Of a stretch of DNA of 64,000 bases, positions 13,069 through 59,670 are shown piece by piece. The stretch covers positions 345,092,001-345,156,000 of the forward strand of contig OZ024740.1 of the NCBI GenBank assembly GCA_964016885.1, read 5' to 3'. Source of the DNA: Eledone cirrhosa (taxonomy: Eukaryota). Within the stretch, counting starts at the first letter, position 1. The number at the start of each line of letters is the position of its first letter. The notes under the pieces are model-generated. The model was given only the letters and a program-made list of their open reading frames with translations, had not been told where the DNA came from and did not search any database. A program made the translations under genes and the position numbers.

Positions 13069-13162
<94 letters not shown>

Positions 13163-13280
13163 AACATCATAAACAATCACAGGGAATAATTTGTAAAGTG
13201 TGTAAGCAGACACAGCTAGGTAGGTAACTCATTAAAGTTTAACTAGAACTTCAAATATAGATACCTTTTAAAATGATTAA

Positions 13281-13371
13281 TCTCCTTTGTATATATTTGT
13301 TTAAATACAAAATATATTTCACCATTAATCGGTAAATCACAGTAGTAAAATCGGATGATCACCAAAGGAGA
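13281..13371 (-). ncRNA. Hammerhead ribozyme, G3-C8 core variant (copy 1)
   Basis: Minus strand: tctcctttg-GTGATCA-t cc...gg t-GAAA-tatatt...aatata-TA-caaaggaga. Confidence 0.75.
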
Positions 13372-13822
13372 AGATCCAACTATCTGTGTTTACACAGCAA
13401 ATGCAAATCTGTGAATGACTCGTACCACGTGTTGCATTTAAAAAAAAAATACACACATCACACAGCGTCATCCCAGTAGCGTGAATAGGATTATCGACAG
13501 CTAGACATAGCAGCCGAGTCCATTCAACCGAGTTAGCTCTACAATTAAGGGGCCGTATATATATCCAAAATTAAATTAAGGGTGTCATGTCTGAGAGACA
13601 TGCGCCATATCCACTGCAGAATAAGCTCAAAGATTCCAATGAATAGATCCGAGCATTTTATATCAACTAGAAATAGATTGACATATATATATATATATAA
13701 AATAAACATATGAAACAATCACAGGGAATAATGTGTAAAGTGTGTAAGCACACACAGCTAGGGAGGTACCTAATTGAAGTTTAACTAGAACTTCAAATAT
13801 AGATACCTTTTAAAATGATTAA

Positions 13823-13915
13823 TCTCCTTTGTATATATTGGTTTAAATAAAAAATATATTTCACCATTAATAGGTAAATCACAGTAGTAAAATTCCGGAT
13901 GATCACCAAAGGAGA
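13823..13915 (-). ncRNA. Hammerhead ribozyme, G3-C8 core variant (copy 2)
   Basis: Same core and stems I/III as copy 1. Confidence 0.75.
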
Positions 13916-14421
13916 AGATCCAACTATCTGTGTTTACACAGCAAATGCAAATCTGTGAATGACTCGTACCACGTGTTGCATTTTTTAAACAAAGGAGATT
14001 AATCATTTTAAAAGGTGTCTATATTTGAAGTTCTAGTTAAACTTTAATTAGTTACCTACCTAGCCAAATTATTCCCTGTGATTATTTCATATGTTTATTT
14101 TATATATATATATATGTCAATCTATTTCTAGTTGATATAAAATGCTCGGATCTATTCATTGGAATCTTTGAGCTTATTCTCCAGTGGATATGGCGCATGT
14201 CTCTCACACGTGACACCCTTAATTTAAATTTGGATATATATACGGCCCCTTAATTGTAGAGCTAACTCAGTTGAATGGACTCGGCTGCTATTTCTAGCTG
14301 TCAATAATTCACGCCACTGGGATGACGCTGTGCGATGTGTGTATTTTATTTTTAAATGCAACACGTGGTACGAGTCATTCACAGATATGCATTTGCTGTG
14401 TAAACACAGATAGTTGGATCT

Positions 14422-14514
14422 TCTCCTTTGGTGATCATCCGTGATTTTACTACTGTGATTTACTGATTAATGGTGAAATATATTTTTTATTTAAACCAAT
14501 ATATACAAAGGAGA
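14422..14514 (+). ncRNA. Hammerhead ribozyme, G3-C8 core variant (copy 3)
   Basis: Stem I 14422-14430/14506-14514 (9 bp), GTGATCA 14431-14437, GAAA 14475-14478, 7-bp stem III, AUA triplet ending at 14505. Confidence 0.78.
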
Positions 14515-14776
14515 TTAATTATTTTAAAAGGTATCTATATTTGAAGTTCTAGTTAAACTTTAATGAGTTACCTACCTAGCTGTGTGTGCTTACACACTTT
14601 ACAAATTATTCCCTGTGATTGTTTCATATGTTTATTTTATATATATATATATATATATATCAATATATTTTGAGTTGATATAAAATGCTCGGATCTATTC
14701 ATTGGAATCTTTGAGCTTATTCTGCAATGGATATGGCGCATGTCTCTCAGACATGACACCCGTAATTTAATTTTGG

Positions 14777-16131: not shown

Positions 16132-17916
16132 TCACTCTCATCCCCCCACTCTCTCTCTCTCTATCTCTCTCTCATCCCTCCCCTCTCTTTCTAGATTCTA
16201 CGACAGCTCCAAACAAAACAGATCAATATGTTTCGCTGAATTGAAATCAGTATGTTTGCGTTATATATCGACATATACAGAAGCAATATAATAAAACTGA
16301 CTTAGCTGATATTTCAACGTTGCGATAGAGGAAAGTGCAAAATAATAAGTCTCTATTCTCTACTGACTACTTTAATTTATTCTAAAACCCAATCTAAAAT
16401 TGTATTAAACTACTCATACAAATACTACAATCCATATTACTCATTTTAGCTCGATTTCAACGCTGAAGTAACTAACCTGAAAGCAAAAATAGCTCAGCAT
16501 AAACTACACTTATACATAGACAGTATTTAAGGTGTACCTTATCAAATGTTTTATTCGTTTGTTTTGTGTCTGATTTGAAGAAAATTGTATTGCTATTTCT
16601 AGGAAGAAAAGCATGTATGTCTATGTACCTTCATTGCATCTCTATGCTCTGGTGTTCCTAAAGACTTCTCGTTCATATCCCACACATTAAAAGTATGTGC
16701 AAGTGAAGTAATTTATAGAACGACCATTTAAAATTCTTATATTTTATCATCTCAGAGCATACTACAACTGTGGAATTATTTCCTGATCTAATTAGTTTAA
16801 AATCTAACTTGTCCTAATGATGCCTGATCATAAAGCTGAATGTTCATTGTTTAAAAGTGAAATCCGAAAATCTCACCATATGTCGTATCTCTACTGAAGC
16901 GAACATAGAAATTCATTTGCAATCCGTCAAGTTGTTTTCGGCTTACGTACCACCCATCATCACGAAAGAAGAGATAACTGCATTTTCAGAAATAGGATGG
17001 AGGATTAGGATGAAGTATTGATTTCTTACGTAACCTGAAATTATCTCAGATAAATTTCAGCTACAGTACCAGAACATGCCTTAATTAATAGCACCTGTAT
17101 AAGCTATATCATATGTGTAGGTGGAGTTAAACAGCTCTGCAATTAACAAAAAAAAATGGAAACATGTAGGGTTAGTTCTATAGAAGGTTGATTATTTCAG
17201 AGTTATTGATTACACAGATGGACACAAGGTTATATATTTAAAGGGCAGGAGTTTAAGAGCGTGTAACTTTAATCCCTTTGTAAAATAATCTATTATTACT
17301 GAAGTAAATGCACTTCTATCGTTGAATTGAAACCTATTCATGCAATATGTATCGCAAAGTACATCCCTTACATTTTTTAATTATATCTAGAAAATTATTG
17401 ATTTCTTCCTTAGATAGGAGATTAATACTGTTGTATCTTAGTTTCAGGTCAACTCAAATCAAACTACTTTAGGATCAAATTCTTTTAAGCTGTGACCGAA
17501 CCGTTCTTACTTTTCAGGCATAGTGTAAACAGGACTAATATATCCCGTGTATCCTTACGTTGTTTTTAAACTCTAGAGTATAATGTCAAGGATATTTGCA
17601 ATGAGACGGATTAGGGAATGCAGTATATCGAATTAAACTAATATGTAACCGGTTTAAATATTAGAAAAGTTATAATGAATTCAATAGTGCTGATTCACAC
17701 AAAACTGAACGATGAAAAAAAAATACTATGTGTATTAAATCTTTTTTCTGTATTGTTTCAATTCACACACTGTTTTGCTAAGCCAAACTCCTTAGTAACA
17801 GACTATATACGCAGTGTCACTGATCCAGTATTATCTTGATTTCAAGATCGATCAATGTAAGATTTTAATATGTTGACCAGAGAATGTTGACCAGCAAACA
17901 CACACACAAACACATA

Positions 17917-18225
<309 letters not shown>

Positions 18226-24290: not shown

Positions 24291-25643
24291 TACCCCACCA
24301 CACAAATATCTCTCTCTCTCTATATATATATATATATGTGTGTGTGTTTGTGTGTGATCATGTGTGAGGGTATGCAATTATAAGTATATGCTTGTATACA
24401 CACACATACACACATACACACACACACGCACGTATATATATATATATATACGCTCATGTAAAACTCATATAAAGCACAAGAATTCCTACCAGAGACATAG
24501 AATTTGTTGGCCTTGATAAGGTGATATAGTAAAAGAAATATAACTCCTGATCTGGTGTTTGATAGAAGCACCACTATGGAGCTCATTGGTTGGTGGCACG
24601 TGAGTTTCAGCTATAGATGTTTGGCCTTCGATTGTAGTAAGTTCGTATTTTGCAGCTTTCGTATTTTTCAGATTCGGTGTATTAATTAATCCCACACCAC
24701 ATAAATGTTCATTTGTAATTATCAACACTTTCACTTGTAATAGAATTATTATCTACAAGGCATATTTTGGAATAGAGACTCTTTACATAGGCGGAGAAAT
24801 TATATTTGTTTGATAAAGTTTAACGAAACTAGGAAAGAAAATGTTTGTAATTTAAATGAATGTAAAATGAAATATTGCAAGGAATATATTTAAAAATAGA
24901 ACACTTCGTTTGCACATAGAGACGCACATATTTATAGAAATATTATTTTCATTTTATTTAATCTTTTTTCATTATATTTGTTTTATTATACTTCTCTTCT
25001 TTCACACAAATACTTCCGTTTCTTTCATGCTTTTCAAGCGAAGTCTTCAAGCTTGCCAGGATGACAGCCATTCGATTGTTGTGGTTAGAATTTATATTCA
25101 TTGCTACCTTCTGAATAGGAAAATATTTAGAAAAATGACAGAACAAATTTAAGAATCACATACATTGTAGCGTGTAACGAATCGTCTTAATTTAATAGGA
25201 TAAATGAAGAGAAATGACACAAATTTACTCTATCTACAGCAGACAACCAATAGTATAATTCGTAAAGTTAAACTTTTGATGAATCGAAATCGTAACCAAA
25301 TTTTATTCAGAGTGCAACTATTTTTTCTGCATTTATAACGTAATTGCAGTCAATATCAATAAAATGGCGACAGATTTCATCTTAGGTAAATTAGAAGGTG
25401 GCAGTTGAATTTAGGATTTCATGGTGATTATTATGAAGCAGTTTTCCTTTAAATTACTCATTGACGCCAGATATTAATTCTTAGGAAAAGGATTATTTGA
25501 AGCTGACCACTCTGAAAAGGATAGAGGTTGTTACACAGGATCTATCAAAAATGCAAAATAAAATGTATAAATTAAATTTGTGTGTGCTCTCACACACACA
25601 CACACACACACACATACACACACACACACGCACACACACACAT

Positions 25644-25696
<53 letters not shown>

Positions 25697-25700
<4 letters not shown>

Positions 25701-25833
25701 AAAATGTTTGACCCCGACGGCAGAGCTCAAGCCGTTTCGACGGCTATTTCTGGTTCAGAAATAGCCGTCGAAACGGCTTGAGCTCTGCCGTCGGGGTCAA
25801 ACATTTTCCTATTACCCACTGTACTAGCCTAAA
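25697..25833. mobile_element. Family A fold-back insert beside (TA)n
   Basis: Perfect 56-bp arms (25697-25752 / 25756-25811) with a 3-nt loop, then tail ttacccactgtactagcc. Confidence 0.85.
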
Positions 25834-55320: not shown

Positions 55321-55323
<3 letters not shown>

Positions 55324-56118
55324 TATTAATCATGAGTTCAAATCTCAGGTAGTCCTTTACAATGAAATAGCTCAAAGAAAGAAGTATTTCTGAGCCCCGT
55401 GTAATACAAGTTAATATGAATTAATATATTTGATAAACACAAATACCAACATATCCATGTTTGTATTGTAAATGACTAAGTATTTTTCAATCTAGCTAAC
55501 TTAGTCATTTACAATACAAACATGGATATGTTGGTATTTGTGTTTATCAAATATATTAATTTATATTAACTTGTATTACACGGCTCAGAAATACTTCTTT
55601 CTTTGAGCTATTTCATTGTAAAGTACTACCTGAGATTTGAACTCATTATTAATAATATCACTGCTCCTTACGTAGAGCTAAATTTAACCCCATATAAACG
55701 GCTGTTATTTCTAGCAGCACGAGTATGCGGTAGCTAGACACTGGATAACCATGTGTAAAAAACCATTTGCGTTAAACAGTCTTTTTAAATATTTTGAAGT
55801 GAAACATACCAATTTTTCTGGTGCTTGCTGAGGAGATAGAAATGCGGTATTCTTTCACTTTCATTTTTCGAAACTTATTTGGATTTTAAGGTTTAAACCA
55901 GTCTAAGGAACAGGTTTGATTTTGAAATTTAAATGTGTCCAAGCACCACGGCCATTTGCCAATATACTTTGTTTTTATTGATTTATTATTTTAAATCGAG
56001 ACAGGCTAACTGTATTATTATAATTAGTATTTTTCAATCTAGCTAACTTAGTCATTTACAATACAAACATGGATATGTTGGTATTTGTGTTTATCAAATA
56101 TATTAATTTATATTAACT

Positions 56119-56123
<5 letters not shown>
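55321..56123. mobile_element. Inverted plus tandem insert of a 547-bp hammerhead unit in (TA)n
   Basis: 55321-55480 is the reverse complement of about 55500-55658. Unit 55481-56027 restarts at 56028 for about 95 bp. TA tracts on both sides. Confidence 0.9.
55819..55948 (+). ncRNA. Canonical type I hammerhead ribozyme with long stem III
   Basis: tggtgcttg-CTGAGGA(55828-55834)-ga..gaaatg/catttttc-GAAAC(55870-55874)-long hairpin-GTC(55937-55939)-caagcacca. Stem I is 9 bp. Confidence 0.88.
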
Positions 56124-57778: not shown

Positions 57779-58092
<314 letters not shown>

Positions 58093-58495
58093 TATATATA
58101 TATATATATATATATGCGCATATACAATATAATGTTTCTGAATATGTATATATATAAATATTTACATATATATAGATATGTATATATGTATGTATGCATA
58201 TATATATATACATATATATATATATATGTATGTATGTATGCATGTGAGTATTGCATATATGTAAGTGTATGTATGCAAGTACACATACATGTATACAAGT
58301 TGCATGTGCATTTCCTCGAAACCACATATAACGGTACAATCATATATGTTTGGTTTTGTGTAAGCAATTAAATTCTGTGAGAATAGAATTAATGTCACAA
58401 TGTAAAATTACAAAAAAATTACAATTATTCATGTATGTGTGTGTGTGTTAGCGAATGTGTATATTCGCATTCGTGAATATCTCTCAACTCATATA

Positions 58496-59282: not shown

Positions 59283-59316
<34 letters not shown>

Positions 59317-59330
59317 TGTATGTATGTATG

Positions 59331-59424
<94 letters not shown>

Positions 59425-59427
<3 letters not shown>

Positions 59428-59631
59428 CGAAGGAAATGTGGTAAGGAACCAGGTTGACCATAACGCACCAAAGTACTCAATACTTAGGGTAGTAGAGTGG
59501 GTAATAGGAACAAGTAAGTCCCCGACGGCTGAGCTCAAGCCGTTTCGACGGCTAATTCTGTACTACGACGAATTGAGTACAGAATTAGCCGTCGAAACGG
59601 CTTGAGCTCAGCCGTCGGGGTCTTACTTGTT

Positions 59632-59635
<4 letters not shown>
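59425..59635. mobile_element. Family A fold-back insert in (TA)n
   Basis: Long arm minus-sense. Centre gacggctaattctgtact-11 nt-agtacagaattagccgtc. Confidence 0.88.

Positions 59636-59670
<35 letters not shown>

Follow-up and report, generated by a model that had tools for sequence, protein, structure and literature searches.

Two hammerhead-repeat units in the window

The window, by which we mean the whole 64-kb stretch of Eledone cirrhosa DNA that was analysed, contains two insertions of hammerhead repeats, one near 14 kb (542-bp family) and one near 55 kb (547-bp family). The units of both insertions carry two bulged hairpins, here termed H1 and H3, a predicted long stem-loop (SL) with a conserved 16-mer at its tip, and a type I hammerhead, arranged as follows:

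13154..14776: complete insertion of the 542-bp family into (TA)n, with two arms, the right one terminating at the putative H3 start site
13284..13654 (−): inverted copy of the 542-bp unit, with H1 at 13654, 16-mer at 13500-13515 and hammerhead core at 13362
14135..14139 (+): putative start site 1, an AU-rich junction situated 4 nt 5' of H1, at which further copies of the 542-bp family pass into (TA)n
14144..14173 (+): H1, bulged GCUC/GAGC hairpin of the 542-bp family (fold -7.9 kcal/mol, z -2.4; family table)
14236..14242 (+): putative start site 2, a TA run ending 2 nt before H3, where ten copies end
14245..14262 (+): H3, second start hairpin of the 542-bp family, with GTAGAGC as its 3' arm
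14266..14320 (+): predicted SL, tipped by the 16-mer (14283-14298)
14422..14514 (+): type I hammerhead; G3-C8 core 14431-14437, GAAA at 14475, predicted cut after 14505
55322..56123: complete insertion of the 547-bp family, with two arms, the left one terminating at the H3 site and the right one at the H1 site
55574..55576 (+): putative start site 1 of the 547-bp family, UAU 6 nt before H1
55583..55608 (+): H1, bulged hairpin of the 547-bp family
55656..55658 (+): putative start site 2 of the 547-bp family, UAU 4 nt before H3
55663..55678 (+): H3, bulged hairpin of the 547-bp family; stem and bulge as in autonomous Hydra-type elements
55687..55733 (+): predicted SL, tipped by the 16-mer (55700-55715) (fold -17 kcal/mol, z -2.8; pair counts below)
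55820..55947 (+): type I hammerhead; C3-G8 core 55828-55834, GAAA at 55870, predicted cut after 55939

A sequence-only reading of the window had proposed that the two units share a block of motifs upstream of the ribozyme, and the pieces of this block were all located in both units: the hairpins at 14144-14173 and 55583-55608, GTAGAGCTAA at 14256 and 55672, and a CGGCTG(C/T)TATTTCTAGC box at 14282 and 55699, the spacers between the latter two being 16 and 17 nt. CACTGG is present at 14315 and 55739, but the longer CACTGG(G)AT(G/A)AC box of that reading is not conserved across families, and the separation of about 105-125 nt that it gave between block and hammerhead applies to the 14-kb unit (105 nt) but not to the 55-kb unit (78 nt from block end to core). 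The similarity of the block exceeds that of shuffled controls (local alignment score 88 versus 46 ± 6, with none of 1000 shuffles as high), and the remainder of the two units is, as had been remarked, barely alignable, with 125 of 1000 shuffles reaching its local alignment score. The view that the two families are distant homologues was borne out by 44% identity over 335 aligned columns and by the placement of 26 families in one alignment. The 16-mer has three matches in the window as compared to 0.04 expected, the 13.5-kb copy carrying one mismatch, and across the 3.0-Gb genome the two-box pattern yielded 325 exact matches and its control none.

No match to twister, pistol, hatchet, HDV or hairpin ribozymes, or to any other Rfam family, was obtained in the window at the gathering score, in agreement with the earlier reading, which had recognised none of the first four. 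Rfam models gave no match to E 10 in 14110-14560, seven sub-threshold and unrelated matches in 55560-55970, none of which falls on the hairpins of the block, and no hammerhead match for these long-stemmed ribozymes. The 14-kb hammerhead has a U-U at the base of stem II, while that at 55 kb uses GAAAC at 55870, is predicted to cleave after GUC at 55939 and has long stems II and III. The pairing of GUAG-AGCU with GGCU-G-YUAU suggested previously proved unsupported, as GAGC already pairs with the adjacent upstream GCUC, and a pairing of UAGC with a downstream GCUA(G) is feasible only in 55-kb-type families, where it competes with the tip hairpin. Another tandem repeat of ~580 bp, 96% alike over 541 bp, lies beside a (TA)n array at 1027-2148 of the window.

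A superfamily of non-coding retrozymes and its hammerheads

Both units were assigned to one superfamily of ~25 families of non-coding hammerhead repeats (retrozymes) inserted in (TA)n. Looser genome patterns returned 525, 1157 and 320 matches, and the 99 copies that were read formed 32 clusters, representing ~25 real families. Units are short non-coding repeats of ~450-550 nt, both tandem and inverted; family consensuses are 54% alike on average and copies are 94-98% alike to their own family. The units lack an ORF, no reverse transcriptase frame continues from the block in the superfamily loci read, and the window units encode neither reverse transcriptase nor endonuclease and are thus non-autonomous. 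Judged by their sequences, these elements work like non-LTR retrozymes, the testable marks of which they display, and are not themselves Hydra elements.

To avoid circularity, the genome was also searched with the two hairpin arms only, leaving the 16-mer unused, which gave 836 matches (control, 7). A version of the motif was found 14-24 nt after the second hairpin in all 30 of the 836 loci that were read, and within two mismatches in 25 of these 30. Both hairpins are kept across many protein-free families. A metagenome scan returned two matches, both inside unrelated prokaryote-like coding DNA, which we take as chance. Contigs from three runs of a single sample revealed variation between copies and nothing further. 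A short tandem repeat with a reversed octamer-like box, similar to an element upstream of U6 genes, was observed beside a decayed superfamily member (L065:1270-1370).

A complete type I hammerhead was detected with our own descriptor in 16 of the 32 clusters, one of which (K20) was spurious and was dropped from the hammerhead table, most misses being single or truncated copies. Stem I is 7-10 bp long and has many different sequences. The 3-8 pair is C-G in 11 cases, U-A in three and G-C in one, the latter being the 14-kb family; C3-G8 versus G3-C8 is therefore natural covariation, as had been suggested from the two window units, and U3-A8 represents a third state of the pair. The literature describes U3-A8 in hammerheads of Penelope-like elements (PLEs; PMC4209133) and partial rescue of cleavage in vitro by the C3G/G8C exchange (PMC11167929). 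Core positions 3-6 read C-A-G-A instead of C-U-G-A, with stems intact, at L175, L176, L185, L191 (family K6) and L190, and other families have C at core position 4.

Most insertion ends lie just before the hairpins

Within (TA)n, copies take the form of partial tandems that have inverted, 5'-truncated arms and an optional tail between two fixed ends. With family K21 dropped from the count owing to a microsatellite in its reference, of 90 tail ends of non-autonomous copies 76 fall in the 10 nt preceding H1 (29) or H3 (47) and 14 lie elsewhere; the former are mostly at UAU, typically 2-6 nt 5' of the hairpin, despite many other TAT sites per unit. The 5' arm of H3, GCYC, was not asked for in the search and was present in 69 of 86 copies versus a background of 7%, the pair being kept behind a 2-nt bulge in 59 of these 69. 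H1 is built like H3, as a bulged GCUC/GAGC hairpin, and no H1/H3 covariation was seen here because the lower stems are almost invariant in this genome. In the 14-kb family the arm of H3 reads GCCC, with one C-A mismatch, and the window copy does not fold alone, yet this H3 is still used as an end. The earlier proposal that the block is a selected, structured cis element is in keeping with its behaviour, and its first half appears to mark the sites at which reverse transcription starts. In the literature searched we found no description of these hairpins or of the SL, and the 15-mer, in either orientation, did not occur in the paper text searched.

Autonomous Hydra-type partners

A protein search identified G, a young autonomous family whose 784-786-aa frames lie in tandem, as well as a further family, G2. 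At G000:C1:91474599-91485819 (L135, L136), four near-identical full-length copies of G follow one another with a period of ~3543 bp and carry a U3-A8 hammerhead. Motifs in the G frame were read by eye: a single ORF with a C-terminal endonuclease, DKT, a CxCX5C linker, no CCHH, RWR in place of RWK, and (TA)n as target. G2 by eye also carries Hydra-clade marks, and WFNPP is present as in Hydra proteins. On the strength of these motifs, compared by eye with section 11 of PMC8557442, G and G2 are classed as Hydra-clade PLEs; Pfam gave no match for G. In the window, G and its subfamilies are represented at 17937-18225, 25591-25832, 57874-58226 and 59295-59660 by solo ends in (TA)n, most of them fold-back; both fixed ends and the 3' half of the hammerhead are present in each.

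In G insertions, ends cluster immediately 5' of hairpins that lie at +25 and +103 from the cut, with 42 of 79 ends at +13 to +25 and 26 of 79 at +96 to +105. For G2, 8 and 29 of 38 ends precede two GCUC/GAGC hairpins, a ratio that is biased by the choice of loci with a query reaching site 2; the second of these hairpins, which is followed by the ORF, is identical to H3 in stem and bulge. Of the six Hydra consensuses published in the supplement of PMC8557442, four, representing coral, sea cucumber and copepod, also show the hairpin when read by eye, namely Hydra-2_Amil, Hydra-1_Ajap (twice, at the very start), Hydra-2_Ajap and Hydra-1_Crog (twice). The upper stems of these published hairpins differ, and there is one compensatory change in the lower stem, Hydra-1_Crog having one hairpin with a compensatory pair and one with a mismatch. 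It was not visible by eye in the supplement's Hydra-1_Amil or Hydra-1_Obim, one of which is incomplete and one without a pLTR, and the words 'hairpin' and 'stem-loop' do not occur in the main text of that paper.

The SL is confined to the non-autonomous units among the elements compared: it was found in none of 16 loci of G, its model matched neither G nor G2, and no autonomous element with an SL was present among G, G2 or three odd loci, the narrow pattern for which gave one match. The absence of the SL from the autonomous partners implies that the enzyme cannot strictly need it.

Two-armed insertions use one arm per hairpin

Among two-armed insertions for which both ends could be assigned, the combination of one H1 end and one H3 end is seen in 21 of 22 non-autonomous insertions, eight of nine G insertions and five of five G2 insertions (34 of 36 in all), while independent choice of H1 and H3 would give about half; ten of 46 rows were dropped from this table as one end was unassigned, and locus L185 is present twice. 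The 55-kb insertion of the window is itself such an H1 plus H3 case. As described in PMC11167929, the Anolis PLE has two internal start sites, extends both strands, is predicted to form a dimer and needs ~55-60 nt of RNA 3' of the start. In 12 families the 15-mer ends 52-56 nt from the H3 start. The pattern of one arm per hairpin fits the behaviour of the Anolis PLE, by analogy.

The long stem-loop and the conserved 16-mer

The 16-mer, GGCUGYUAUUUCUAGC, forms the tip of a long, irregular predicted stem-loop that begins a few bases after H3, and what had been described as a variable spacer pairs with sequence 3' of the 16-mer. In 55-kb-type families 88% of cells are paired, six pairs are changed on both sides and one of 500 shuffles reaches the score, in 14-kb-type families 83.5% are paired, four pairs are changed on both sides and none of 500 shuffles does so, and in a third subgroup the covariation score is not above shuffles (81 of 500), these structures having been drawn by hand from the same sequences, and the families being related, such that both controls are inflated. 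Single copies of the SL fold with z from -1.3 to -3.7. RNAalifold over all 28 families recovered only H3 and not the SL, and a covariance model built from 55-kb-type families recovers those families and weak, tip-only matches and misses the 14-kb block of the window.

The 16-mer is also abundant outside the superfamily, with 7473 exact genome matches, and among the first 30 of these loci ten belong to the superfamily, five to an LTR-flanked element, one to another repeat and 14 to an old repeat or to no assigned repeat. Several of these carriers were characterised in passing. An element of ~2 kb (L035, L036, L041, L050, L051), which has direct repeats of 300-340 bp and in which no long frame was noticed, carries the 16-mer ~770 nt inside the 5' repeat, without the stem below it, and a short element in (TA)n (L037:1200-1520) carries three motif copies in both orientations. 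The old repeat, of ~230 nt, ends in an (AAC)n tail and lacks an evident tRNA head (L031, L038, L039, L045, L052, L059, L060; window 17426-17598); on the strand presumed to be sense, the motif takes the form of a hairpin with a GAAA tetraloop, and the repeat was matched to no named SINE. Published central domains of SINEs (Meta, MESC and others) gave no match in the searchable supplement parts of PMC4824008 and PMC4758252.

One alternative accepts H1 and H3 as start signals and regards the 16-mer as acting at the DNA level, as a transcription-factor site or an internal promoter from which the tandem units are transcribed, the stem then reflecting general retrozyme folding. In its favour, the 16-mer has many exact matches and is shared with unrelated repeats in either orientation, and a strand-specific RNA signal poorly explains the 16-mer in such repeats, as the old repeat carries it in opposite orientation; furthermore, its position 96-136 nt before the hammerhead core is a good place for a promoter. 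The core of the 16-mer resembles a MEF2 site, one family variant being a full match, and an snRNA-type promoter is present in newt satellite 2. One of five distinct U6 upstream regions has a match to the 16-mer with two mismatches at -62, but the 16-mer is absent from the other four and from all seven distinct U2 upstream regions, and it was rejected as an snRNA promoter element (PSE). Moreover, changes at and around the tip mostly preserve G-U or Watson-Crick pairs, and do so on the sense strand only; compared with flank-swapped controls, the tip folds better on the sense strand (0 of 10000) and barely so on the antisense strand (P ~0.05). There is also no such site in the G unit or at the G2 end. 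We therefore regard the DNA-element explanation as unlikely, though it is the strongest of the rivals. Regarding the snRNA genes themselves, those of U6 (L091-L100, L234-L247) have in common an octamer-like box (ATGCWAAT) near -78 and a TATA box near -30, those of U2 share other upstream boxes, and each kind lies in tandem arrays of ~30 or more copies.

A second alternative, which we rate as improbable, is that the SL half was captured from the old abundant repeat and kept only for folding, its exact letters being no signal. The block profile matches that repeat over 23 nt (E 1.2e-6), in an orientation that the (AAC)n tail suggests is opposite to that of the retrozymes, and ~14 of the first 30 loci with the 16-mer are the old repeat or unassigned; as the 16-mer is shared with it, capture is possible. 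The sequence-only reading had named a captured SINE fragment with no covariation as the outcome that would speak against a functional block, and this came true in part, in that the 16-mer is found in the repeat, but the stem beneath it covaries. The families differ by ~46% on average, yet among 28 distinct loci found without using the motif, seven of the 16 positions are the same in 27 or more, with positions 6 and 12 swapping C and T. Folding alone would allow compensatory changes in the tip, but such changes are rare there.

It has further to be considered whether the second half of the block is the 3' end of a retained spliceosomal intron, with a branch point in GCTRA, a U-rich tract and UAG. 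Penelope elements often retain introns, and the spacing from GCTRA to TAG fits a branch point, while the exchange at positions 6 and 12 is between pyrimidines. PLE introns beside hammerheads are, in addition, known (PMC4209133). Against this, none of 159 alignment starts falls between +8 and +55 and no copies begin at AG, GAGCT also follows H1 and is thereby explained as a hairpin arm, and no donor site is common to the families, which makes the intron very improbable. A pile-up of alignment starts at +172 was dismissed as a cross-family alignment artefact at the hammerhead. Finally, a relic second hammerhead, or an antisense arm pairing with the hammerhead of the autonomous element's mRNA, was suggested by a resemblance by eye of the reverse strand to stem II of family G, but is the least credible reading, given that a profile search of both strands of G reached E 2.2 or worse and that the conserved GAAA and stem III are missing.

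Proposed mechanism

The reading that we prefer, and consider reasonably probable on the sequences at hand, is that the two bulged hairpins just 3' of the insertion ends are start signals for a Hydra-clade PLE reverse transcriptase, and that the adjacent predicted SL is recognised by a protein on which the parasite RNA depends. The sequences show tandem units in (TA)n that contain a type I hammerhead and no ORF; these hammerheads would cut monomers that, like those of other animal retrozymes, may become circular. The ends of copies occupy AU-rich sites (mostly UAU) no more than 10 nt 5' of H1 or H3, and in autonomous elements the same hairpins lie at the same offsets. We envisage that the enzyme binds H1 and H3 and cuts (TA)n, that the 3' end of the DNA pairs with UAU, and that copying proceeds away from the hairpin. 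In two-armed insertions H1 is used for one arm and H3 for the other, and two subunits may prime both DNA strands on one RNA. These steps, from the position of the ends to the two-armed insertions, are jointly viewed as highly probable. The last step is the least certain: a protein, either a host factor or a second contact of the enzyme, may read the SL tip as RNA, and such a contact would let a non-coding RNA be used in trans; we judge the chances of this to be evenly balanced.

Hydra-clade Penelope enzymes are close kin of telomerase. More speculatively, and with somewhat less than even confidence, we propose that Hydra-clade enzymes are dimeric on one RNA with two GCUC/GAGC hairpins, from coral to echinoderm, one subunit per hairpin and each priming one (TA)n strand, and that retrozymes hijack them via both hairpins together with a parasite-only SL of invariant tip that recruits the machinery in trans. 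If true, a dimer with one subunit per hairpin explains both the tail and the back-to-back arms.

Significance and comparison with known systems

The block bears on the questions of how PLEs choose internal start sites, why their insertions have tails together with inverted arms, and by what means animal retrozymes are mobilised. It offers a candidate signal of 16-30 nt common to parasite and helper, and the same genome holds a young, intact helper ORF and a strict rule of one arm per hairpin, as a result of which these questions can be tested by a simple priming assay. The parasite-only SL is, in addition, a candidate way for a non-coding RNA to overcome the preference of the helper for its own RNA.

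With the animal non-LTR retrozymes (PMC7229834; Li et al. 2026, bioRxiv 10.64898/2026.07.22.740005) the window units share tandem non-coding units with one type I hammerhead each, and in these sources such retrozymes are proposed to be moved by PLEs. The window units differ from them in their length of 450-550 nt and their long stems II and III, and also in having defined insertion ends, start hairpins and an SL, for which no description was found in the accessible parts of these two sources. With the Hydra clade of PLEs with C-terminal endonuclease (EN+), as set out by Craig et al. 2021 (PMC8557442), they share (TA)n targeting, a canonical hammerhead, inverted 5'-truncated arms and an optional tail, and its published consensuses carry the same bulged hairpin; in contrast to the Hydra clade, the window units encode no protein, have a tail of 61-101 nt versus 30-40 nt, and possess the SL in addition. 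The Poseidon element PAc of Anolis, as described by Frangieh et al. 2024 (PMC11167929), resembles the window units in having two internal start sites that define a tail, in requiring RNA 3' of the start, in the extension of both strands and in its predicted dimer. PAc belongs to a different clade, and the start inferred here is placed at a UAU able to pair with (TA)n, on the 5' side of a GCUC/GAGC hairpin.
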